Shown: positions 3,771 through 54,905, counted from the first letter of the stretch. The stretch is 64,000 bases of DNA from Eubacteriales bacterium (GCA_045539995.1 JAZQGJ010000070.1:293-64292); one strand, 5' to 3'. A program made the numbers and translations. Notes: a model not told the origin generated them from the sequence alone.

Positions 3771-5089
3771 CAGCAGCCTTTATCCTCTGTTTTTGTTTTT
3801 TTAGCTGAAAAATCGCCTAAACGGCATATCTCTTTAAAGACCTTTTCGGTAGCCGCCTGATATTCGTTGTTGCCGCCCTTTTCAAAGCCAAGCTCGCTGT
3901 AGGGAATAGGCTTTCCGATTATAATATCTACGCGACGAAAGAGCGCATATTTTTGCTTCTTCATTTTAACACAAACGGGAAGCATAGGGGCTTTCGCATA
4001 ATAAGCTATCATGCCCGCGCCACTCTTTATAGGAGTCTCTGCGGGATTTTTCCCCTTCTGGCGAGTTCCTTGAGGGAAAACGGCGACAAGCTCGCCGCTT
4101 TTAAGGAGACTCACGGATTTTTTTATTGCGCTTATATCGCTTCCGCCTCGGTCTAATTTACAAGCGCCGAGAGCAATTATCAAACTCTTAAGCAGAGGAA
4201 TTTTGAAAAGCTCTGCCTTCGCAAGATAACGAAGTCTTCTTTCTCTAGGGAAGCAAGCCGAAATCGCCAAAACGTCAAAAAGAGCTACGTGATTTGCGCA
4301 AACTACGCATCCGTTATATTCCGGCACGTTTTCATAGCCCGTCGTTCTTAAATTCATAAAAAACTTAAAAATCCCCGAAAAAAAGCTGTAAAAATTACGG
4401 TAGAAGCGCGTCTGCTGTGTCGTTTTACGCGTATTTTCGTTTATTATTCTCACAGCCTCGTCTATAGTTTCTTCGACACTCAGATTTGAATTGTCGAGAA
4501 TTATAGCGTCCTTTGCGGCAACCGCAGGCGCAACGCTTCGGGTACTGTCGTTTTCGTCTCGCTCTCTCATATCGCTTAAAACGTCTTCAAGCGTCGTCTC
4601 AATGCCCTTTTGCTTTAATTCCTCATATCTGCGCTTCGCTCTTGCTTCAATGGAAGCCGTCAGAAAGATTTTAACGTCGGCATCGGGGAATATAACGGTA
4701 CCTATATCACGTCCGTCCATTATTACGTCGCTCGTTTTCGCAATAGAGCGCTGAGTGTCAAGCAGAAAAGCTCTTACCTCAGGAATAGCGGAAACCTTGG
4801 ATGCGTACATCGAAATTTCAGGGGTTCTGATTTGTCCGTTCACGTCCTCGTCGCAAAGCATAACGTGCTGCTCTCCGTTTTCAAAGCGAAGGTCAAGAGA
4901 GATGTTTGGAAGCTCGTTAATTACCGATACCGAATCATCGGGGCTTATGTCCTTTCGCCTTATATATAGCCCGATAGAGCGATAAAGCGCTCCCGTATCA
5001 ACGTAAACAATATTCATTTTTGCCGCAACTGCTTTGGCTAAGCTGCTCTTGCCTGCGCCACTTGGTCCGTCAACTGCAATTTTTATCAT
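3770..5089 (-). CDS. cmk: fusion protein: cytidylate kinase + 1-acyl-sn-glycerol-3-phosphate acyltransferase-like (LPLAT) domain
   Basis: 439 aa. The N-terminus has the Cmk P-loop GPSGAGKSS and DTGALYR. The C-terminus has the acyltransferase motifs NHVALFD (HX4D) and FPQGTR. Its stop overlaps the ispH start by 1 nt. Confidence 0.88.
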   Translation of the reverse strand: MIKIAVDGPSGAGKSSLAKAVAAKMNIVYVDTGALYRSIGLYIRRKDISPDDSVSVINELPNISLDLRFENGEQHVMLCDEDVNGQIRTPEISMYASKVSAIPEVRAFLLDTQRSIAKTSDVIMDGRDIGTVIFPDADVKIFLTASIEARAKRRYEELKQKGIETTLEDVLSDMRERDENDSTRSVAPAVAAKDAIILDNSNLSVEETIDEAVRIINENTRKTTQQTRFYRNFYSFFSGIFKFFMNLRTTGYENVPEYNGCVVCANHVALFDVLAISACFPRERRLRYLAKAELFKIPLLKSLIIALGACKLDRGGSDISAIKKSVSLLKSGELVAVFPQGTRQKGKNPAETPIKSGAGMIAYYAKAPMLPVCVKMKKQKYALFRRVDIIIGKPIPYSELGFEKGGNNEYQAATEKVFKEICRLGDFSAKKTKTEDKGC

Positions 5090-5103
5090 ATAATATCCTT
5101 TCT

Positions 5104-6342
5104 TTATTGCGTAGATGCGCTTTTTCCCGCAATATATGCGCTTGAAAAGGCAATCTGTAAATTAAACCCGCCTGTATAGGCATCTACGTCAAGAATTTCT
5201 CCTGCAAAGTATAGGTTCTCCGTCAGGCGAGACATCATAGTTTTTGGTGATATCTCCTTTACGTTTACTCCTCCTGAGGTGATTATAGCTTCCTCTATCG
5301 GACGGAAGCCGAGAACTTCAAATTCCCAGCCCTTTAACAGAGCGAGAATTTTCGCTCGCTCGGCTTTCGTTATTGAATTCACCTTTTTTGTCGGCGGTAT
5401 ATTGGTCCTTTCAATAAAGACCTGTATCATTTTAGAGGGAAGCAGGTCGCAAAGCGCATTGGCGAAATCCCTGTTTGCGTATTTTTCAAAGTCGGACAAA
5501 AGACGCAAATCAAGTTGCTTCTCGTCAAGCGCGGGCTTCATGTCAATTCTGAGCCTTAACCGATTTAATGCAACGCCCCTTATATGCGCGGACGCGCTTA
5601 AAATCATAGGTCCGCTTACGCCAAAATGAGTGAAAAGCATCTCTCCGAAATCGGTATATATTACCTTTCCGCTTTCCTTGTCTGTTATTGAAAGACCCAC
5701 GTTTTTAAGAGAAAGTCCCTGCATATTACGGCATTCATCGCCCTTTATTTCTAACGGAACAAGAGAGGGGATTATATCCGTTACAGTATGCCCCGCTTCC
5801 TTTGCGAGCTTGTAGCCAAAGCCGTCAGAGCCTGTCCTCTGATACGACATACCACCTGTGGCTATTATAACCGCATCAAAAAAGTAACTTTTGTTCGTTC
5901 TCAGTCCCGTGATTTTTCCGTCCTCTATAATCAGAGAAGTGACCTTTTCGTGAATGATTTCAGCGCCGCTTATGTATTTTTTTAGCGCGTTTACAATATC
6001 GGACGCACGGTCGGAAACAGGGAAAACTCTGTTTCCTCTTTCGGTTTTTAGAGCGACACCGAGCCCTTCAAAAAGCGACATTGTGGATTCAGTATTGAAT
6101 TCAGAGAGCGAAGCGTACATAAAACGGGGATTTTTCGTAATGTTGTTCATAAATTCCTCGTTTGAGCAATTGTTCGTTACGTTACATCTTCCTTTTCCCG
6201 TAATAAGCAGCTTCTTGCCTAAAATGGCGTTCTTTTCAAATATCGTAACACAAGCGCCGTATTGCAGGGCAGTACCCGCCGCAAGCATTCCCGCAGCCCC
6301 TCCGCCTACTATAGCAATTCTTTTCGCGTTATCTTTTTGCAT
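5104..6342 (-). CDS. NAD(P)/FAD-dependent oxidoreductase, HI0933/BaiN-like flavoprotein
   Basis: 412 aa. The N-terminal dinucleotide fold IAIVGGGAAGMLAA and the ITGKGRCNVTN motif are typical of the HI0933 family. Confidence 0.85.
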   Translation of the reverse strand: MQKDNAKRIAIVGGGAAGMLAAGTALQYGACVTIFEKNAILGKKLLITGKGRCNVTNNCSNEEFMNNITKNPRFMYASLSEFNTESTMSLFEGLGVALKTERGNRVFPVSDRASDIVNALKKYISGAEIIHEKVTSLIIEDGKITGLRTNKSYFFDAVIIATGGMSYQRTGSDGFGYKLAKEAGHTVTDIIPSLVPLEIKGDECRNMQGLSLKNVGLSITDKESGKVIYTDFGEMLFTHFGVSGPMILSASAHIRGVALNRLRLRIDMKPALDEKQLDLRLLSDFEKYANRDFANALCDLLPSKMIQVFIERTNIPPTKKVNSITKAERAKILALLKGWEFEVLGFRPIEEAIITSGGVNVKEISPKTMMSRLTENLYFAGEILDVDAYTGGFNLQIAFSSAYIAGKSASTQ

Positions 6343-7186
6343 ATATTTCGTATTCTTCCCAGATTCTTTCGAGCTTTTCGAAGCGTTCCTTGACCTCGTC
6401 TTGCTTCAGCTTCGTTATTTGAACAAGCATAGCGTTAATTATGCTGAGAGGCGCGACGAGTGAATCAACGTATGACGCCATATCACTCTGCGCTGTGAGT
6501 AGCTGGTTTGCGTATTCGGCAATAGGTGCGCTTTTGCTGTCCGTAAGTGCGATAACGTCGGCGCCCTGCGATCTCGCGTATTTTACCGCGCTGACCGCCA
6601 TTGAGGAATATCTCGGAAAGCTGATGGCTATCATAACGTCATTTTCGCTGATATTAAGCGCTTGCTCGAACACCTCGCTTGTGCCCGACGGCTGAATAAG
6701 CTTCACGTTTTCAAAAATCATGCTTAGATTGAAGTGTAAAAACGACGCAAGATATGATGAAGAACGAACGCCGAAAATATAAATTTGCTTTGCGTTTATG
6801 ATCGAATTTACTGCGGCAGAAAAATAGTCTCTGTCTATATTATCAAGCGTGTATTTTATTTTCTCTATATCTGACGTCATAACCTTTGAGAGCAGGTCTC
6901 CGTCGCCTATTCTCATATTAGTCATTTCAATTCTCTGATTAGGCGTCAAACGTGTGCGTACAAGCTCTTGTACAGCGCGCTGAAATTCGGGATACCCGTC
7001 AAAGCCCAGCTCTGTCGCAAAGCGCACGACGGTTGACTCTGAAACTCCTGCCGCTTCTCCGAGCTTTGCCGCAGTCATATACGCCGCCTTCTCGCAGCTC
7101 TGTGTTATAACGCTTGAAATTCGTTTTTGCCCCTTTGATAATGTCGGCATTTTCGCTTCTATCAGCGCAGAAATGTCGTTCGTCAT
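6329..7186 (-). CDS. MurR/RpiR family transcriptional regulator (HTH + SIS domain)
   Basis: 285 aa. N-terminal HTH_6-like region (AAKLGEAAGVSESTVVRFATELGFDGYPEF) and a C-terminal SIS domain. Confidence 0.88.
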   Translation of the reverse strand: MTNDISALIEAKMPTLSKGQKRISSVITQSCEKAAYMTAAKLGEAAGVSESTVVRFATELGFDGYPEFQRAVQELVRTRLTPNQRIEMTNMRIGDGDLLSKVMTSDIEKIKYTLDNIDRDYFSAAVNSIINAKQIYIFGVRSSSYLASFLHFNLSMIFENVKLIQPSGTSEVFEQALNISENDVMIAISFPRYSSMAVSAVKYARSQGADVIALTDSKSAPIAEYANQLLTAQSDMASYVDSLVAPLSIINAMLVQITKLKQDEVKERFEKLERIWEEYEIYAKR

Positions 7187-7243
7187 AAAAGCATCACCTT
7201 CATTCGATTTGATTTTCTACTAAATATAAATACATATGTAATT

Positions 7244-7272
7244 AGTATATCACTTTCTTGCCGTTTTTTCAA
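7244..7272 (-). promoter_or_regulatory. sigma-A type promoter of the rpiR-like gene (TTGAAA-17-TATACT)
   Basis: Minus-strand reading: cTTGAAAaaacggcaagaaagtgaTATACTaatt, about 55 nt upstream of the start codon. Confidence 0.6.
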
Positions 7273-7345
7273 GTCTTATGGTGAATATTTTTATTTTCTT
7301 ATTTGGAAATTATCAGCGCAAAATGCGCAGATATCACAGGGAAAT

Positions 7346-7417
7346 AAAAAAGAAAACCCCGATTCAGAAACCGCTACCAGCGAGACCCTCACTACGGTTT
7401 CCGAAAAGGAGTTTTCC
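7346..7417 (-). ncRNA. candidate small RNA, unit A (long hairpin + U6)
   Basis: The minus-strand RNA is GGAAAACUCCUUUUCGGAAACCG..CGGUUUCUGAAUCGGGGUUUUCUUUUUU. It has a 9-bp outer stem and an 11-bp inner stem. It starts 7-8 nt after the -10 of promoter 7424-7452 and ends in U6. No ORF or RBS. Confidence 0.45.
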
Positions 7418-7423
7418 AATAGC

Positions 7424-7452
7424 AGTATATCACAAAAAAACCGAAAAGTCAA
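7424..7452 (-). promoter_or_regulatory. sigma-A promoter of unit A (TTGACT-17-TGaTATACT)
   Basis: Minus-strand reading: ccgTTGACTtttcggtttttttgtgaTATACTgc, with a near-consensus -35 and an extended -10. Confidence 0.6.
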
Positions 7453-7506
7453 CGGTTTCTTAAAAAACGACAAATTACGGTGATCGAATGGCTTTCCCCC
7501 ACGCTC

Positions 7507-7535
7507 TTGACAACGACAGCGACGAGGGGTATAAT
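7507..7535 (+). promoter_or_regulatory. sigma-A promoter (TTGACA-17-TATAAT) driving small ORFs P1/P2
   Basis: cTTGACAacgacagcgacgaggggTATAATaaaag has perfect consensus hexamers with a 17-nt spacer. Confidence 0.65.
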
Positions 7536-7557
7536 AAAAGCAAAGGAGATGATAAAA

Positions 7558-7830
7558 ATGGTCAAAACTCCAGATTATTGGAAAGAGGAAAAATATCAAC
7601 CTCTCGTAGATGTGAAAACGATATACGGGAACACAGTAAAAATACCAGAACGCAACAAGGATTTTTGGGACTTTCAGATCAAGGGCTTTGAAGAAATAAT
7701 ATCAAAGCTGGGGAAACAGGCTGGCTTGAAGATTATCAAGGAAATGCTGGATCCGGAGATTATAATGAGAAGCTTAGAGTGCGAAGATTTATACAAAGTA
7801 ATGCTTGAAAATTATCAAAAACAGAATTAA
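7558..7830 (+). CDS. small hypothetical protein P1 (90 aa; MVKTPDYWKEEKYQPLVD..)
   Basis: ATG 7558 lies 9 nt after AAGGAG (7543-7548) and downstream of the consensus promoter. The track ORF 7480-7830 starts upstream of that promoter, so I use the shorter start. No recognisable family. Confidence 0.5.
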   Translation: MVKTPDYWKEEKYQPLVDVKTIYGNTVKIPERNKDFWDFQIKGFEEIISKLGKQAGLKIIKEMLDPEIIMRSLECEDLYKVMLENYQKQN

Positions 7831-7938
7831 AAGAAATCGATACGGACGAAAGAAAATCTTAATTTTACGCTCAAAGTGGAAGCAAATCGGTAAAGGTAAT
7901 AGATGAGGAAAACCAAACAATTGTAAAGGAAAAGGGAA

Positions 7939-8121
7939 ATGAAAAGATATAATTCTATAATGGAAATACTGAAGTCAAAGGACCTGTCATTAATCGAAAT
8001 ACAGGAAAGAATGGAAGAATACATCGCAGAGAAAGGAATGACGCCAGAGGAATTCTGCGAGACGGAGGAAGGACAGGAAATGGTGAAATTCAACGAACAA
8101 AGGTTTTGGAAGCCAATGTAA
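7939..8121 (+). CDS. small hypothetical protein P2 (60 aa, acidic, helical)
   Basis: ORF preceded by aaaggaaaagggaaATG, same strand as P1 and 108 nt downstream. No recognisable family. Confidence 0.35.
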   Translation: MKRYNSIMEILKSKDLSLIEIQERMEEYIAEKGMTPEEFCETEEGQEMVKFNEQRFWKPM

Positions 8122-8231
8122 AAAAGCCAAGAGAAAGCAACAAAATTAGCAATACTGTTAATGGCAAAAATGAACTCTTTTATTGGAATAAAAAAAGAAG
8201 TCATAGCTTTAGCATTCATTTTAGGGATAAT

Positions 8232-8301
8232 AAAAAAGTGACAACATCCCTCTTTCGCCCTGCAACAAGCAAGGCTACTCGTCAGTTGGACGCCGTCACT
8301 G
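8232..8301 (-). ncRNA. candidate small RNA, unit B (long hairpin + U-tract)
   Basis: The minus-strand RNA is cAGUGACGGCGUCCaacugacgaguagCCUUGCuuguuGCAGGGcgaaagagGGAUGUUGUCACUUUUUU. It has a 13-bp closing stem (three G.U pairs) and a 6-bp apical stem. It starts 6 nt after the -10 of promoter 8307-8334. Confidence 0.45.
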
Positions 8302-8306
8302 ATAAT

Positions 8307-8334
8307 AGTATATCACAAAATTCTAAAAAGTCAA
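8307..8334 (-). promoter_or_regulatory. sigma-A promoter of unit B (TTGACT-16-TGaTATACT)
   Basis: Minus-strand reading: tgTTGACTttttagaattttgtgaTATACTatt. Confidence 0.6.
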
Positions 8335-8389
8335 CAAAAGATTCAAAAAACGGCAAATTCCGATGACAGAATGGCTTTGCCCTATACTA

Positions 8390-8418
8390 TTGACAAAGAC
8401 GGTGACGAGGGGGATAAT
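8390..8418 (+). promoter_or_regulatory. sigma-A promoter (TTGACA-17-GATAAT) driving small ORF P3
   Basis: aTTGACAaagacggtgacgagggGGATAATga is the positional homologue of promoter 7507-7535. Confidence 0.6.
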
Positions 8419-8441
8419 GATAACAAAGGAAGTGTGATAAA

Positions 8442-8612
8442 ATGTGCAAGAAAGAAGAGACGCAGAACGCCATAGAAATCATAAAATCAGCAATGAAGAA
8501 TCATCAGCAGATGTTATTAACCGACAAGGATTATCCAAAGAAGGTAAAAGAGGCCGAAGAGATAATCAAAACGAAATTGTTGAGTATGTGCCCAGATTAC
8601 GAAAAGAATTAA
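8442..8612 (+). CDS. small hypothetical protein P3 (56 aa; MCKKEETQNAIEIIKSAMKNHQQMLLTDKDYPKKVKEAEEIIKTKLLSMCPDYEKN)
   Basis: Not in the ORF track because it is under 60 aa. ATG 8442 sits 8 nt after AAAGGAAG and is the positional homologue of the P1 start in the duplicated cassette. The track ORF 8444-8635 uses a GTG in another frame. Confidence 0.4.
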   Translation: MCKKEETQNAIEIIKSAMKNHQQMLLTDKDYPKKVKEAEEIIKTKLLSMCPDYEKN

Positions 8613-8661
8613 GAGAGATTGAAAAGGCAAAATGAACGCAATCCAAATATGTATTGAAAAT

Positions 8662-8737
8662 AAAAAAAGACACATCCTTGGACGGTGTAGGACGCGATAA
8701 AAATCGTATTTCCTACGGTGCCTCATCAGATGCATCT
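8662..8737 (-). ncRNA. candidate small RNA, unit D (long hairpin + U7)
   Basis: The minus-strand RNA is GAUGCAUCugaugaggcaccGUAGGAaauacgauuuuuaucgcgUCCUACaccguccaagGAUGUGUCUUUUUUU. It has an 8-bp closing stem (two G.U pairs) and a 6-bp inner stem. It starts 7 nt after the -10 of promoter 8744-8772. Confidence 0.45.
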
Positions 8738-8743
8738 GATATT

Positions 8744-8772
8744 ATTATACCCAAAAATTCTGAAATTGTCAA
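8744..8772 (-). promoter_or_regulatory. sigma-A promoter of unit D (TTGACA-17-TATAAT)
   Basis: Minus-strand reading: caTTGACAatttcagaatttttgggTATAATaat has perfect consensus hexamers and spacing. Confidence 0.65.
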
Positions 8773-8797
8773 TGAAAATTCAAACAATTTTGAACTG

Positions 8798-8873
8798 AAA
8801 AATAGTTAGAAGGCAATTCGCAAGAAGCGTCACCGGGGAGAAACATCCCAACGCTTCGAGCAAACTGCCCCTT
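8798..8873 (-). ncRNA. candidate small RNA, unit C (long hairpin, U5 7 nt downstream)
   Basis: The minus-strand RNA is GGGGCAGUUUGCucGAAGCGU-(20 nt)-ACGCUUCuuGCGAAUUGCCUUcuaacuaUUUUU. It has 12-bp and 7-bp stems with several G.U pairs. It starts about 8 nt after the -10 of promoter 8880-8907. Confidence 0.4.
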
Positions 8874-8879
8874 GCTAAT

Positions 8880-8907
8880 ATTATACCACGCCCACCCGAA
8901 AAGTCAA
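8880..8907 (-). promoter_or_regulatory. sigma-A promoter of unit C (TTGACT-16-TATAAT)
   Basis: Minus-strand reading: ccgTTGACTtttcgggtgggcgtggTATAATatt. Confidence 0.6.
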
Positions 8908-8916
8908 CGGGAAAAT

Positions 8917-8966
8917 AAAAAAAGCTTGCGCCAAGTATCAATTTGATCCTGGTACAAGCTTTTTTG
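8917..8966. terminator. intrinsic terminator downstream of gltX (bidirectional appearance)
   Basis: aaaaaaAAGCTTG-(26 nt)-CAAGCTTttttt is a 7-bp stem flanked by an A-run and a T-run. The large loop makes it weaker than the other terminators. Confidence 0.5.
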
Positions 8967-8977
8967 ATAATCAAAAA

Positions 8978-10429
8978 TTAAAACTTTGCGATTGCGGTCT
9001 TTACACGGGAGATAGTCTCGTCCTTGCCGATGACCTCCATAATCTCCGTAGCGCCGCCGGGAGTGACAGCCATACCCGAAGCGGCAATGCGTAAGCACCA
9101 CATAAGTGTGCCCGATTTTATTGCGAGCTTTTCGGAGAGGGCGACGAGACTGCTGTAAAGCGCGTCGTTATTCCACTCGCTTTGCACTTCAAGTACAGGA
9201 AGCGCTTCCTTTAAAATTTCGGGCGCGTTTTCAAGAGTTACTTTGTTTTTCTTGTTCACAAAAAGCTCTGCCGAATATTCGGGGAGAGAAATGAAGAACG
9301 AAATTTTTTCTTCAATACTGCTCAGCTTGTCAAGGCGGGAATTGAGAAGCATAAGCATCTTTTCTCTGTTTACGTTAGAGGGGAGCGTAGACTTTATGAA
9401 GGGAGCTACGGCTTCTTTAAAGCTTTCAAAGGGCATTTTGCGAATATATTCGCCATTGAACCATAAGAGCTTGTCAAAATCGAATACGGAGGGGGATTTG
9501 CTGATTCCCTCGATAGAGAACTCGCGCTTTAATTCATCCAACGTAAAGAATTCACTCTCGGAGTTTTTGGGACACCAGCCGAGTAATGCGATATAGTTTA
9601 CGATAGCCTCAGGCAGATATCCGTCGGCAACCAAGTCCTGAAAGCTTACGGCGCCGTGTCGCTTTGAGAGCTTTGAAATGCTTCCGTCCTCGTTTCTTCC
9701 CATAAGCAAGGGCAGATGAACGTAGGTCGGTCTTTCCCAACCAAACGCATCGTAGAGAAGCACGTACTTAGGTGTTGACGTGAGATATTCGCTTCCTCTC
9801 ACTACGTGCGTAACCCCCATAAGATAGTCATCAACGACGTGAGCAAAGTTATACGTGGGGTATCCGTCCGCCTTCATAAGAATCTGATCCTGAAGCTCGG
9901 AATTGTCTGTAGAAATTTCTCCGAAAACTACGTCGTAGTAGCTCGTTCTGCCCTCAAGAGGCATTTTCTGACGTATAACGTAGGGAGTGCCCTTGGCGAG
10001 CTCTGCGTCTATTTCTTCCCGTGAAAGATCGCGACAGTGTCTGTCATAGCCTCCTGTCGCGTCATTTTCGTGAAGCTGAGCCAAACGGTCTTTAGAGCAG
10101 AAGCAGTAATACGCATATCCCTTGTCAACCAATATCTGAGCGTATTTTGCGTAAATATCCTTTCTGTCGCTCTGAATGTACGGCCCGTGATCTCCACCGA
10201 CAAACGGTCCCTCGTCATAGCTTAAGCCTGTGATTTTCAACGTGCTTATAATCACGTCGGTTGCGCCATCAACAAGTCTTTCACGGTCAGTATCCTCAAT
10301 TCGAAGAATAAAATTTCCACCGTCGTGCTTTGAAATAAGAAAGGAATATAATGCGGTCCTTAAATTTCCTATGTGCATATATCCCGTGGGGCTTGGGGCA
10401 AATCTGGTAACAGTCTTATTAGAGTCCAT
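8978..10429 (-). CDS. gltX: glutamate--tRNA ligase
   Basis: 483 aa. Class I motifs HIGNLRTALY (HIGH) and KLSKRHG (KMSKS). Confidence 0.97.
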   Translation of the reverse strand: MDSNKTVTRFAPSPTGYMHIGNLRTALYSFLISKHDGGNFILRIEDTDRERLVDGATDVIISTLKITGLSYDEGPFVGGDHGPYIQSDRKDIYAKYAQILVDKGYAYYCFCSKDRLAQLHENDATGGYDRHCRDLSREEIDAELAKGTPYVIRQKMPLEGRTSYYDVVFGEISTDNSELQDQILMKADGYPTYNFAHVVDDYLMGVTHVVRGSEYLTSTPKYVLLYDAFGWERPTYVHLPLLMGRNEDGSISKLSKRHGAVSFQDLVADGYLPEAIVNYIALLGWCPKNSESEFFTLDELKREFSIEGISKSPSVFDFDKLLWFNGEYIRKMPFESFKEAVAPFIKSTLPSNVNREKMLMLLNSRLDKLSSIEEKISFFISLPEYSAELFVNKKNKVTLENAPEILKEALPVLEVQSEWNNDALYSSLVALSEKLAIKSGTLMWCLRIAASGMAVTPGGATEIMEVIGKDETISRVKTAIAKF

Positions 10430-10486
10430 ATTTAATCCTTTTCTTTTATAATTTTATTTTTATTTACATAAATTTCAAATAGGAAA

Positions 10487-10516
10487 TTGACTTCCTACAC
10501 CTTTATATTGTATAAT
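10487..10516 (+). promoter_or_regulatory. near-consensus promoter (TTGACT-18-TATAAT) pointing toward the histidine kinase gene
   Basis: aaTTGACTtcctacacctttatattgTATAATat. The predicted +1 is near 10523, giving a 5' UTR of about 186 nt. Confidence 0.5.
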
Positions 10517-10663
10517 ATAATATATGTGTCATTAATTTCATTCAAAACGAAATTAATGAGCGCCACCTTACGGCGACACTTCGAAAGCCTGTCGGCTTTC
10601 GCACATTTCTTGAAATATGGTTACTCGTGCTTGCTTGCAAGAAGACAGACACGAGCTTGACAT

Positions 10664-10692
10664 ATTATATCATATAAAGATGAATTTTTCAA
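10664..10692 (-). promoter_or_regulatory. near-consensus promoter (TTGAAA-17-TATAAT) pointing toward gltX
   Basis: Minus-strand reading: acTTGAAAaattcatctttatatgaTATAATatg. The predicted +1 is near 10657, giving a 5' UTR of about 228 nt that is antisense to the plus-strand leader. Confidence 0.55.
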
Positions 10693-10708
10693 GTACGGAG
10701 GGCAAAAA

Positions 10709-12169
10709 ATGTTTAAGAGTATTTTTTTAAAGCAGCTCACAACCTTCGGTCTTATTATTTTGCTTTCGTTTGTTCTCTTGATTTCTATAATAACGTCTAT
10801 TGTAAACAGCTATTCATTGAGTCAGAACACCGAAAGCGTGAAATGGACCGCCGCTGCCGCCAAGGCAACGATTGAAGAGGGCATAAAAATTAATAATAGC
10901 GAGTCATATTCTGATTTTCTTTCAAGCAAGAAAGAGAACATAGAGAAGATTACCTCCGCTTTGTTTTTGAGAAATGACAGAATGATGCTTTTCGTAACTG
11001 ATATGGAGGGAAACGTCGTTCTTGAAATGAAGGAGAACGCGGAGAGCGAAAGCGCGAAAAGCATTACCTCACCGTTGCCTGCGAAAATTTTAGAGGAAAC
11101 CTTTGATGACGGAGAGTATTATTCGGTCTCCGATCTTGACAAAAGCCTGAATACGCGCCACATAGTTTACGGACATCCTATCGTTTACGGAGACGGTCAG
11201 ACTGTAGGCGCAGTCTATGCGGGTATGGAATACACGTCCGATAACTTTCTTATGGGACTTATGATGGAGACCGTTGTCACGGCGTGTCTCTGGATCGCTT
11301 TGGCGGCGTTGATAGCGGCTTATTTTATGAGCGAAAGAATAGTAAGCCCCCTGCGTAATATGGCGACGGTATCAAAAAAATTCGCGAAAGGAAATTTCAG
11401 CGAGCGAGTTGCGGTTGTCGGCAGAGACGAAATTGCCGATTTGTCGGTTGCGTTTAACAACATGGCAGATTCGCTTGAAGAAATGGAGAATATGCGAAAT
11501 TCGTTTATCGCCAACGTCTCTCACGACCTGCGTACCCCTATGACCACTATTTCGGGCTTTATAGAGGGCATTAACAGCGGGGCTATTCCCGAAGAAAAGC
11601 GCAGCTATTATCTTAACATTATCGCGTCAGAGGTGAAGCGCCTTTCACGCCTTGTAAATGAGCTTCTCGACATAACCAAGCTGGAGTCGGGCAAGCGCAA
11701 GTTTGTCTTTGAAAGCTTCGATATTTGCGAAAAGGCAAGACTTATACTGATCTCCTTTGAGCAAAAGATCGAGAACAAAAGGCTTGACGTGGAATTTGAA
11801 TGCTTTGAAGATAACGTAGACGTTTTTGCCGACAAGGATGCCGTTCATCAGGTCCTTTACAACCTATGCGATAACGCTATAAAGTTTTCGCGAGAGGGCG
11901 GCTTGTTAAGAATATCCATTCTTCGCGGCGATCACGGAAAAATAAAGGTCTCCGTTTATAACGAGGGAGAGGGAATTGCAAAGGAGGATATTCCTTACGT
12001 ATTTGACCGATTCTATAAAAGTGACAGAAGCAGAGGACTCGACAAGACAGGCTCAGGACTCGGACTCTATATAGCGAAGACGGTCATTGAAGCGCAGGAT
12101 GAAAGAATTATCGTCAACAGCGTATCGGGCGAATACTGCGAGTTCGTATTCACCTTGACCGAAAAATAA
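10709..12169 (+). CDS. sensor histidine kinase (2 TM, HAMP, HisKA, HATPase_c); no cognate response regulator adjacent
   Basis: 486 aa. H-box SHDLRTPMTTI, N-box DNAIKF, G-boxes GSGLGL. The HAMP-like segment follows the second TM helix. Confidence 0.9.
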   Translation: MFKSIFLKQLTTFGLIILLSFVLLISIITSIVNSYSLSQNTESVKWTAAAAKATIEEGIKINNSESYSDFLSSKKENIEKITSALFLRNDRMMLFVTDMEGNVVLEMKENAESESAKSITSPLPAKILEETFDDGEYYSVSDLDKSLNTRHIVYGHPIVYGDGQTVGAVYAGMEYTSDNFLMGLMMETVVTACLWIALAALIAAYFMSERIVSPLRNMATVSKKFAKGNFSERVAVVGRDEIADLSVAFNNMADSLEEMENMRNSFIANVSHDLRTPMTTISGFIEGINSGAIPEEKRSYYLNIIASEVKRLSRLVNELLDITKLESGKRKFVFESFDICEKARLILISFEQKIENKRLDVEFECFEDNVDVFADKDAVHQVLYNLCDNAIKFSREGGLLRISILRGDHGKIKVSVYNEGEGIAKEDIPYVFDRFYKSDRSRGLDKTGSGLGLYIAKTVIEAQDERIIVNSVSGEYCEFVFTLTEK

Positions 12170-44331: not shown

Positions 44332-44372
44332 CAAAAAGGGCAAAACAGATTCTTTACAAAACTGTTTTGCCC
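44332..44372 (-). terminator. intrinsic terminator inside the pflB leader (expression platform of the ZTP riboswitch)
   Basis: Minus strand: GGGCAAAACAG-uuuuguaaagaau-CUGUUUUGCCC-UUUUU is an 11-bp stem. Its 5' arm overlaps the conserved CUGGGCA of the aptamer. Confidence 0.8.
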
Positions 44373-44436
44373 AGACGGTCGGCATATAACTTTGCATTCC
44401 CTCGCGGTTACCCGCATATCCGTCAGTTATGCAAAG
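44368..44436 (-). promoter_or_regulatory. ZTP riboswitch (pfl motif) aptamer
   Basis: Minus strand: CUUUGCAU-AACUGACGG-AUAUGCGGGUAACCGCG-AGGGA-AUGCAAAG-uuauau-GCCGACCGUCUGGGCA. This matches the pfl-motif layout: P1, a J1/2 resembling UGACUGGCG, a P2 hairpin, GGGA, the P1 3' strand, a linker, then CCG-NCC-GNCUGGGC. The pseudoknot covaries (GACGG/CCGUC). Confidence 0.85.
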
Positions 44437-44458
44437 ACAAATAACTTATTACACCTAT

Positions 44459-47401: not shown

Positions 47402-47489
47402 TGGTGCCGGTGATCGGGGTCGAACCGATACGGTATCGCTACCACTGGATTTTGAGTCCAGCACGTCTGCCAATTCCATCACACCGGCA
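47402..47489 (-). tRNA. tRNA-Leu (anticodon CAA)
   Basis: The reverse complement reads GCCGGUG..GCUGGA-CUCAAAA-UCCAG-(long variable arm)-AUCGG-UUCGACC-CCGAU-CACCGGC-A-CCA. Preceded by the minus-strand promoter TTGATT-17-TATAAT (47508-47536). Confidence 0.9.
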
Positions 47490-54074: not shown

Positions 54075-54099
54075 GAATAATTTTTGAATTTTTCCTGCT

Positions 54100-54290
54100 T
54101 AGTGCGTGATAGGGTGAGTTTTGGGCCTACAATTATGATAATGGAGCCCGAGCTTCCGTTGCGGGTATGCAGGCCTCCCGAATAGGTCCGACTGAGTCCG
54201 ACCTATATCGGACGTTGGAAGCACAAAACAATGGAGAGGGCACCACCCTGCAGTCGCAGGGCTAAAAGTCTTGCTCTACACGGCTCGGCG
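54100..54290 (+). ncRNA. candidate structured non-coding RNA, class unassigned (a rod-like fold is possible; 6S-like is only one hypothesis)
   Basis: The segment has no ORF in any frame and is clearly G+C-richer than the AT-rich flanks. Helices seen by eye: CCGAAUAGGUC/GACCUAU(A)UCGG (11 bp), CCCUGC/GCAGGG, GCCCG/CGGGU, and long-range GAGUUUUGGGCC/GGGCUAAAAGUC (10 of 12). It is followed by the terminator at 54323-54355. Confidence 0.4.
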
Positions 54291-54322
54291 GGTTTTACAT
54301 TTAAAATTGAATAACAATTTTG

Positions 54323-54829: not shown

Positions 54830-54905
54830 TGGAGCTGGTGATGTGACTTGAACACACGACCTGCTGATTACGAATCAGCTGCACTACCGACTGTGCTACA
54901 CCAGC
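54830..54905 (-). tRNA. tRNA-Thr (anticodon CGU)
   Basis: The reverse complement reads GCUGGUG-UA-GCAC..GUGC-A-GCUGA-UUCGUAA-UCAGC-AGGUC-GUGUG-UUCAAGU-CACAU-CACCAGC-U-CCA. Confidence 0.9.

Follow-up and report, generated by a model that had tools for sequence, protein, structure and literature searches.

Predicted tiny antisense RNA genes in giant polyvalent toxin genes and in a chromosomal island of an uncultured Eubacteriales bacterium

Between an rpiR-like gene and gltX, in a 64,000-nucleotide stretch of DNA from a Eubacteriales bacterium (GCA_045539995.1, JAZQGJ010000070.1:293-64292; the whole stretch is referred to as the window and numbered from its first letter), lies a 1.6-kb island whose minus strand carries four short units between positions 7341 and 8907. 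Each of them is composed of a sigma-A-type promoter, a leader of 6-9 nt, an imperfect hairpin of 60-70 nt and a U-tract. An earlier note, made from the sequence of the window, had described four minus-strand units with a common architecture. Positions 6800-9500 were read and scanned here for promoters, hairpins and terminators, and the promoter scan and the RNA folds recovered all four units, which are arranged as follows:

7341-7452, minus strand: unit A, with -35 box TTGACT (7452-7447), spacer of 17 nt, TG extension and -10 box TATACT (7429-7424), promoter score 10/12; leader 7423-7418 (6 nt), hairpin from 7417 to 7351 (67 nt), U6 tract 7350-7345
8228-8334, minus strand: unit B, with -35 box TTGACT (8334-8329), spacer of 16 nt, TG extension and -10 box TATACT (8312-8307), promoter score 10/12; hairpin from 8300 to 8237 (64 nt), U6 tract 8236-8232
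8658-8772, minus strand: unit D, with -35 box TTGACA (8772-8767), spacer of 17 nt, no TG extension and -10 box TATAAT (8749-8744), promoter score 12/12; hairpin from 8737 to 8668 (70 nt; folding free energy, ΔG, -25.7 kcal/mol, z -3.6), U7 tract 8667-8662
8797-8907, minus strand: unit C, with -35 box TTGACT (8907-8902), spacer of 16 nt, TG extension and -10 box TATAAT (8885-8880), promoter score 11/12; leader of 9 nt, hairpin from 8870 to 8811 (60 nt; ΔG -33.4 kcal/mol, z -4.65)

Several details of the earlier description had to be adjusted. The TG-extended -10 box had been reported for units A and B only, and it is present in unit C as well. About 6 nt separate the end of the -10 box from the onset of pairing (6-7 nt in units A, B and D), which puts the predicted transcription start (+1) at the base of the hairpin (A or G), and not 6-8 nt in front of it as proposed previously. 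A run of five to seven U residues was said to follow each hairpin, which is correct for units A, B and D; the hairpin of unit C is followed by UCUAACUAUUUUUC, no U-tract adjoins it and a U5 run comes 9 nt later. Because of this displacement, unit C is probably a weak terminator that reads through into unit D.

The fold proved to be specific to the minus strand, as the note had suggested. In all four units the minus-strand fold is 4-15 kcal/mol more stable than the plus-strand fold, and each of them has 4-5 G.U pairs and not a single A.C 1x1 mismatch (unit A: ΔG -36.7 kcal/mol vs -21.7 on the plus strand, z -6.9, five G.U pairs; unit B: ΔG -32.5 kcal/mol vs -17.1, z -5.7, four internal G.U pairs). 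We detected 20 promoter-like sites in the scanned region, compared with 5.1 +/- 2.3 in shuffles, and four of the 16 strongest sites of the window (at least 11/12) fall within the island. A promoter-blind scan for hairpins of 50-95 nt followed by a T-run, performed on both strands of the complete window, returned seven hairpins; a correctly spaced promoter was found only at A, B and D, while the other four had none, and unit C was missed because its U-run is displaced. When the window was combined with the related loci described below, 10 of the 27 scanned hairpins had a promoter of at least 9/12 within 12 nt, for which the chance is 0.033 each (P = 7e-9). The units look like autonomous transcription units, in agreement with the independent short transcripts proposed before, and each is predicted to be a self-contained gene for a short antisense RNA of ~65-75 nt.

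One possibility is that these are trans-acting multicopy small RNAs (sRNAs) that control unlinked host or phage mRNAs via short seeds, which would be compatible with the presence of four autonomous strong-promoter units in one intergenic island and with their stable, terminator-ended structures. However, the four hairpins have no alignable sequence or loop motif in common, no second copy of any of them was found elsewhere in the window, and no seed or motif is common to the four RNAs and the 23 others of the related loci. Neither k-mers nor loop motifs (CCGUAG, UGAGG, YUNR) exceeded shuffle maxima across non-orthologous units, so that strings such as CCGUAG, previously taken as traces of common descent, could not be retained as such. 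Complementarity of the unit RNAs to the rest of the window did not exceed 12 nt and had E-values at chance level, the RNAs have almost no single-stranded sequence besides their small, U-rich loops, and the units of the relatives are embedded in coding sequence. We consider such a trans-acting role very unlikely, and the multicopy sibling family of the earlier note is not supported: sRNAs of the Qrr, LhrC or csRNA type were rejected on account of the unalignable sequences and the lack of any k-mer above shuffle expectation. The missing common sequence or loop motif speaks against a protein-binding as well as a trans-seed function. REP, REPIN and MITE repeats were also rejected, since each hairpin is unique in the 64-kb window and the units are dissimilar.

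Related loci (designated L001 and so on) were first fetched as homologues of ORF93, a plus-strand gene that is the sole part of the island with relatives leading to other loci. All of these loci came from metagenome-assembled genomes (MAGs) of uncultured Oscillospiraceae, Acutalibacteraceae, Eubacteriales or Clostridia. A second protein search, using the MuF_C-plus-linker segment of L002 as query, added L013-L021, and a metagenome scan added L024, the only locus obtained from JGI metagenomes. Searches for relatives of ORF93 and MuF_C gave no hits among IMG/VR viral contigs, GenBank phages or PLSDB plasmids. Plus-strand open frames of 1058-2363 codons are present in L006, L007, L008 and L011, with the Pfam domains ART-PolyVal, MuF_C, PBECR3 and LPD38; L001 has LPD3 and ART-PolyVal within an open frame of 683 codons, and L002 encodes a MuF_C protein of 837 residues, in the translation of which an HExxH motif was seen by eye. 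These giant proteins are polyvalent proteins as defined by Iyer et al. (2017; PMC5512222). In L007 and L011, the gene upstream of the giant gene matches the virion structural protein phrog_3287, which suggests that these giant genes lie in prophage head modules.

About 23 further units were identified at 14 loci, giving 27 tabulated units when those of the window are included. The -35 box is TTGACA in 17 units and TTGACT in six (23/27), and the -10 box is TATACT in 11 and TATAAT in six. A 17-nt spacer was found in 25 units, a TG extension in 13, a 6-nt leader in 20 and an A or G as the first paired base in 24; the hairpins span 58-78 nt. The units are placed antisense within giant polyvalent frames or fragments of them, and wherever a giant frame exists the sense frame is open through the unit. 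In such frames the unit comes directly after the end of a domain (LPD3 in L001, PBECR3 in L011, MuF_C in L008 and L002). The corresponding sense peptide consists of the domain end (...Y..KK), ~22-25 variable residues encoded across the hairpin and then (D/T)(S/I)I.(K/Q)N...V(N/K). In this peptide the -10 box, taken as its reverse complement, reads 'SI' or 'II', and 'V(N/K)' or 'ST' spans the -35 box. The codon phase of the -10 box (AGT ATA or ATT ATA) is identical in six out of six cases. Both hexamers of the L011 unit match the consensus despite a wholly different spacer and peptide; it is therefore the promoter, not the peptide, that is conserved, which points to selection on the promoter.

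The same in-phase footprint can be read on the plus strand over the promoters of the four window units, as SSISQKNRKVN (A), DNSISQNSKKST (B), DIIIPKNSEIVN (D) and NIIPRPPEKST (C). In addition, the promoter and spacer of unit D are 84% identical over 38 nt to a unit promoter inside the polyvalent gene of L006. Given these footprints and this match, the island is an orphan remnant of a polyvalent toxin gene, in which the giant frame has been broken and four RNA genes and ORF93 have been kept. We interpret the units as a so far undescribed family of tiny antisense RNA genes in giant polyvalent toxin genes. The family has so far been seen only in uncultured gut Clostridia, and in all inspected loci its units are either unannotated or covered by spurious open reading frame (ORF) calls.

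The earlier note could not name a known RNA family for the units, and our searches agree. No match was obtained in positions 7000-9100 of the window with Rfam 15 at the gathering threshold; at E<=10 only chance-level hits appeared (the best, RUF4, with 32 bits vs a gathering score of 55), and at E<=0.1 nothing was found on the units of eight related loci. An interpretation of CUGAUGAG/CGAAA (units D and B) as hammerhead-like was dropped, as no covariance model supported it. A full-text literature search retrieved no paper describing such units. The terms "antisense" and "promoter" are both absent from Iyer et al. (2017; PMC5512222), and in a 2025 paper on RelE/ParE, antisense RNAs appear only in a general account of toxin-antitoxin types.

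Selection on the RNA structure was examined in a set of seven orthologous units, all located behind the same MuF_C subfamily (L002, L013, L015, L016, L018, L020 and L024). Pairs were counted from the minimum free energy structure on the alignment, with partners slid by 1-3 columns and shuffles as controls. In this alignment 95.8% of cells are paired, compared with 40-57% when the partners are slid, and the compensatory changes that the earlier note had named as a test are present, with both-sided changes at six pairs (13 cells). The covariation score of 0.300 (0.120 +/- 0.024 in shuffles) was reached by none of 500 shuffles. U.G pairs are invariant or nearly so at three positions, where the sense strand would have A.C mismatches. 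The high pairing, the compensatory changes and the invariant U.G pairs indicate that an RNA structure is under selection on the antisense strand. A similar preference was observed across all 27 units, with 41 internal G.U pairs vs six A.C 1x1 mismatches in the antisense fold, 12 vs 23 in the sense fold and a more stable antisense fold in 21/27 units, although these family-wide counts carry an ascertainment bias because the units were partly found by folding that strand.

The constraint on the hairpin is independent of the protein. In L018 (1206-1321) and L020 (1292-1407) the sense frame is shifted across the hairpin, and in L024 (131-775) MuF_C is a pseudogene with an internal stop; in all three the antisense promoter and hairpin are intact. 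Among the orthologues the identity is highest in the hairpin (0.80), compared with 0.63 in the adjacent 390 nt of domain-coding DNA, 0.64 in the promoter (hexamers only) and 0.52 in the linker beyond.

Hairpins of variable sequence and conserved structure at cassette borders might alternatively be DNA-level elements, i.e. recombination sites of an attC-like or cruciform kind at the borders of exchangeable cassettes, to which the promoters would be secondary. Polyvalent genes are known to be mosaic (Iyer et al. 2017; PMC5512222), and L016 and L017 are identical except for a segment swapped between the T-runs of units. However, the excess of G.U over A.C and the invariant U.G pairs point to RNA, and a near-consensus promoter at a fixed distance would be left unexplained. 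Integron attC sites were rejected, since the hairpin bases read AG(A/G)... and ...CU and have no RYYYAAC/GTTRRRY cores. No integrase turned up in the island (based on an ORF list for 5000-11500 and a protein-family comparison of only four of these ORFs), and homologous recombination between repeated flanks offers the better explanation for the L016/L017 swap. We regard a DNA-level element as highly improbable.

It may also be asked whether the plus strand carries the signal, as an A-rich run directly precedes the inverted repeat there and could, together with the hairpin, cause -1 frameshifting or ribosome pausing at domain borders; a heptamer (A AAA AAG or A AAA AAA) is indeed in frame in L002 and in the second unit of L001. 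However, only 2/6 cases have it in frame, it is separated from the structure by 0-1 nt where 5-9 nt would be expected, and the sense fold, besides being weaker, carries A.C mismatches. A -1 frameshift signal was rejected on these grounds, and since the promoter would again have no explanation, we see next to no chance for a sense-strand signal of this type.

Another explanation is that the units are transcriptional insulators, in which a strong antisense promoter with an immediate, strong terminator forms a roadblock or collision site, limiting sense read-through across cassette borders and holding antisense transcription below 80 nt, and the RNA itself is irrelevant. The promoter, the terminator and the very short transcript fit such a design, as do the positions at cassette or domain borders and the lack of sequence conservation. 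Units A, B and D resemble ordinary intrinsic terminators in that U5-U7 comes directly after a stem base containing G+C, and they should terminate. However, an ordinary terminator needs only a stem of 5-14 bp, with a loop of 3-8 nt and an adjacent U-tract, which unit C lacks, whereas the hairpins here are 58-78 nt long with two or three helical segments, and the terminator scan missed them. With a dedicated promoter located 6 nt upstream, they receive no transcript from an upstream gene, so only their own transcript would be terminated. Moreover, the inner helices are conserved and covary at pairs far from the U-tract, the loops are conserved within orthologues, and the hairpin of unit C is well kept despite being a poor terminator. 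An insulator in which the RNA has no role is in our view unlikely.

The surroundings of the units provide information on possible partners. The island (7300-8900) has a GC content of 0.36-0.39 vs 0.43-0.49 in its flanks. Purines are strongly enriched on its plus strand (AT skew +0.33 to +0.39), as expected of a sense strand that codes for protein, although the flanking rpiR-like and gltX genes are both on the minus strand. Owing to the GC shift and to a purine-rich plus strand opposite to the strand of the neighbours, the island looks like foreign DNA whose plus strand is the sense strand. The following features were recognized:

7462-7558, plus strand: divergent module next to unit A, with promoter TTGACA-17-TATAAT (7507-7535, 12/12), 5' untranslated region (UTR) and Shine-Dalgarno sequence of ORF93
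7558-7830, plus strand: ORF93, 90 aa from ATG 7558 or 93 aa from ATG 7549, with the promoter at 7507-7535
7939-8121, plus strand: ORF60, small and hydrophilic, located after ORF93; its predicted transcript runs into unit B
8345-8441, plus strand: copy of the divergent module next to unit B, with promoter TTGACA-17-GATAAT (8390-8418, 11/12), predicted to drive ORF56
8442-8612, plus strand: ORF56, small and hydrophilic; its predicted transcript crosses units D and C before the gltX terminator
8915-8975, both strands: bidirectional intrinsic terminator of gltX (A-run, hairpin, T-run; z -5.1 and -6.5), which is the right edge of the island

The two divergent modules share 77% identity over 97 nt. 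The flank conservation that had been noticed between units A and B is real in this sense, but it covers the divergent plus-strand promoter and 5' UTR and not the hairpins. We also considered whether the divergent promoters of A and B are separated by a conserved minus-strand terminator; this was ruled out, as the sequence folds no better than shuffles. No plus-strand terminator was found ahead of the gltX terminator in the scanned region, so the sense transcripts must cross unit B and then units D and C, and unit B is predicted to be convergent with the ORF93/ORF60 transcripts. ORF56, ORF60 and ORF93 belong to no family in Pfam or PHROGs scans; relatives of ORF60 were found at 97-100% identity only, and ORF56 had none in the fetched loci. 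ORF60 and ORF56 may be genuine genes or pieces of frame left over from the former giant gene. A type I toxin-antitoxin system in the strict sense was rejected, since its toxin is a hydrophobic peptide of less than ~60 aa and all three ORFs are hydrophilic, the partners in the relatives being MuF_C, PBECR3 and LPD3; by position, the units overlap the sense coding sequence or 3' UTR of putative toxins.

Within the giant polyvalent ORF of the relatives, ORF93 occupies the +1 frame as a nested gene, always just upstream of ART-PolyVal, and it has its own near-consensus sigma-A promoter. Besides the window copy, it occupies the following positions:

L001, 3171-3455
L006, 5983-6255
L007, 5968-6249
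L008, 340-654
L011, 5998-6246

Substitutions by ORF93 codon position are distributed 308/207/763, and we regard ORF93 as a genuine protein-coding gene. The giant frame is open across it in nine out of 10 compared relatives (the exception is L005) and is broken in the window. An AlphaFold model of ORF93 (pLDDT 83) had no fold match in the PDB, and the protein matches 53 clusters in a 50% representative library. We consider ORF93 a candidate for an overprinted gene that confers immunity to the ART domain. In the same library, the protein P0021 (4819 residues) contains 14 separate stretches that match the ORF93 profile (positions 19-69), which suggests that an in-frame, repeated version of the ORF93 domain exists elsewhere.

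The presence of a neutraliser-like gene with a constitutive promoter beside ART, and of units directly after MuF_C, PBECR3 or LPD3 domains in the same genes, raises the question of whether the hairpin RNA is itself an immunity factor or decoy. Similar to type III toxin-antitoxin systems, it would bind and neutralise the adjacent predicted RNase domain (MuF_C/PBECR, BECR fold), and the chromosomal islands would be orphan RNA immunity genes against phage-injected RNases, in parallel to ORF93 beside ART. MuF-C is classed as a PBECR predicted RNase by Iyer et al. (2017; PMC5512222); furthermore, sequence conservation is higher in the hairpin than in the domain-coding DNA, and units persist where the sense gene is a pseudogene. 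On the other hand, units after related domains have neither sequence nor a loop motif in common, the hairpins that follow different copies cannot be aligned, and the unit RNA is antisense to the toxin domain rather than co-transcribed with it. The RNase activity and toxicity of the domains are themselves predictions, and no PBECR or MuF_C remnant was found beside any of the four window units. ToxIN-like type III systems, in which an endoRNase toxin processes tandem short RNA repeats encoded upstream on its own strand, were ruled out, since the units run antisense to the domain, show no tandem sequence repetition and lack a common motif. Immunity by RNA binding appears unlikely to us. We also doubt, to a similar extent or slightly more, a broader proposal that polyvalent genes have built-in self-protection, transcribed from the same DNA by the housekeeping polymerase of the host, with hairpin RNA immunity after each RNase-type domain (MuF_C/PBECR/LPD3) and ORF93 before ART, and that bacteria keep orphan copies of both, as in the island described here, as a defence against toxins injected by related phages. 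In polymorphic and MuF toxin systems (PMC3482391, PMC5576092), cassettes carry their own protective gene and orphan fragments are scattered in chromosomes. Recombination between cassettes is common to those systems and the loci studied here, whereas known immunity is provided by downstream-encoded proteins and the candidates here are a linker antisense RNA and a protein nested in the +1 frame.

Our preferred reading, for which we see about an even chance, is that the units encode constitutive cis-antisense RNAs, of the OOP or type-I-antitoxin kind, that silence or insulate the sense transcripts of toxin cassettes. The earlier note had listed, among its options, antisense or antitoxin-type RNAs that run against the small-ORF transcripts of the plus strand, and this is the option favoured by the evidence. 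It builds on the architecture and recurrence of the units, their antisense placement, the structural covariation and the strand specificity. In this mechanism, a strong sigma-A-type promoter would direct initiation to the position where pairing begins in a long, bulged hairpin, and the hairpin base and U-tract would serve as an intrinsic terminator, so that the product would be a closed hairpin with a U tail. Host RNA polymerase would make the RNAs constitutively, and they would pair perfectly with any crossing sense transcript, namely the ORF93-ORF60 and ORF56 mRNAs in the window and the giant toxin mRNA in intact elements. A double-strand RNase would be recruited to cleave the resulting ~65-bp duplex, and convergent transcription would interfere in addition, so that within the resident cell the toxin cassettes would stay silent or insulated. 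Bulges and 2x2 loops interrupt the helices, which are 10-14 bp long; this design shields free antisense RNAs from double-strand RNases.

The closest working analogues are the OOP RNA of phage lambda and, from prophage regions of Firmicutes, type I antitoxin RNAs of the 3'-overlapping kind. OOP is a 77-nt phage antisense RNA transcribed from pO and ended by an intrinsic terminator; it is complementary to the 3' end of cII and acts in an RNase III-dependent manner. The units resemble it in their phage or prophage context, in having their own (here predicted) constitutive promoter, in forming a terminator-ended stem-loop of ~70-77 nt, in their antisense position within a protein-coding gene or at its end and in not needing a conserved sequence. 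Unlike OOP, they occur in many copies per gene or island, each different in sequence, and in linkers of one giant multidomain toxin gene whose frame is kept open; pairing includes the whole of their 5' end, copies of them persist in orphan chromosomal islands, and they are known from sequence alone. The type I RNAs of Firmicutes prophage regions comprise the pairs txpA/RatA, bsrG/SR4 and bsrE/SR5. These also involve a small convergent antisense RNA with its own promoter and terminator that overlaps the 3' part of the toxin transcript, they lie in prophage-derived islands and RNase III-mediated decay has been proposed. In contrast to them, the partners here are PBECR, MuF_C or LPD3 domains or small hydrophilic ORFs instead of small hydrophobic peptides, and the RNAs are shorter and fully folded. 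The Sib/Ibs systems (SIB/QUAD repeats) are similar in that several tandem or dispersed copies exist, each with an antisense RNA specific to its own locus. Sib copies are homologous in sequence and overlap a toxin ORF of 18-19 aa, whereas the four RNAs of the window are unalignable, and no tiny ORF with a ribosome-binding site was seen by eye opposite unit D, the unit inspected for it.

Several observations weigh against cis-antisense silencing. The promoters and terminators of the units are predictions from sequence. A cis-antisense RNA is defined by its own promoter and terminator opposite a transcribed gene and by full complementarity; the units show these features in their sequence, and for unit A no sense transcript was identified in the window. 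Pairing extends through the 5' end of the RNA, and its loops are U-rich and of small size; fast antisense pairing would need loop-loop contacts, which are hypothetical. A bulged hairpin of 60-75 nt that is more conserved than the neighbouring domain exceeds what pairing in cis would need. The giant gene of L007, which has LPD38 only, contains no unit, and the module is therefore not universal in such genes. Finally, the covariation alignment has only seven sequences and comes from another unit than the four of the window, and the ascertainment bias of the family-wide strand counts should be added here.

Cis-antisense RNA itself is well known; what is new here is the occurrence of predicted cis-antisense RNA genes in the linker codons of giant polyvalent toxin genes. 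If transcribed as predicted, the units would be an uncatalogued RNA family whose genes lie antisense in the linkers of multi-thousand-residue phage toxin proteins, and one DNA stretch would hold three layers: a giant ORF, a nested gene in its +1 frame and antisense RNA genes. This would suggest how temperate phages, and bacteria that keep fragments of them, hold toxic cargo silent, and it may show how immunity to the toxins of related phages is gained. The units also offer a concrete signature for gene finders and RNA annotators.

Remnants with units were found between housekeeping genes in other genomes as well. In L001 the remnant lies between rpsO and ftsK, in L016 and L017 between a formyltransferase gene (purN-like) and an Na/Ala symporter gene, and that of L024 adjoins a tRNA; L022 is identical to the window over the part that it covers. 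The segments 1450-2500 of L016 and 1570-2560 of L017 belong to otherwise identical islands and differ in one swapped segment that is bounded by the T-runs of adjacent units. L017 has an extra unit whose hairpin base is like that of the neighbouring unit and whose apical stem-loop is different. Unit arrays recombine, and the apical parts of the hairpins can be replaced.

Elsewhere in the window, five gathering-level Rfam hits were obtained that are unrelated to the units. They are three tRNAs (110-183, 47405-47488 and 54833-54905, the last on the minus strand), a 6S RNA at 54089-54298 on the plus strand and a ZMP/ZTP riboswitch at 44362-44440 on the minus strand.

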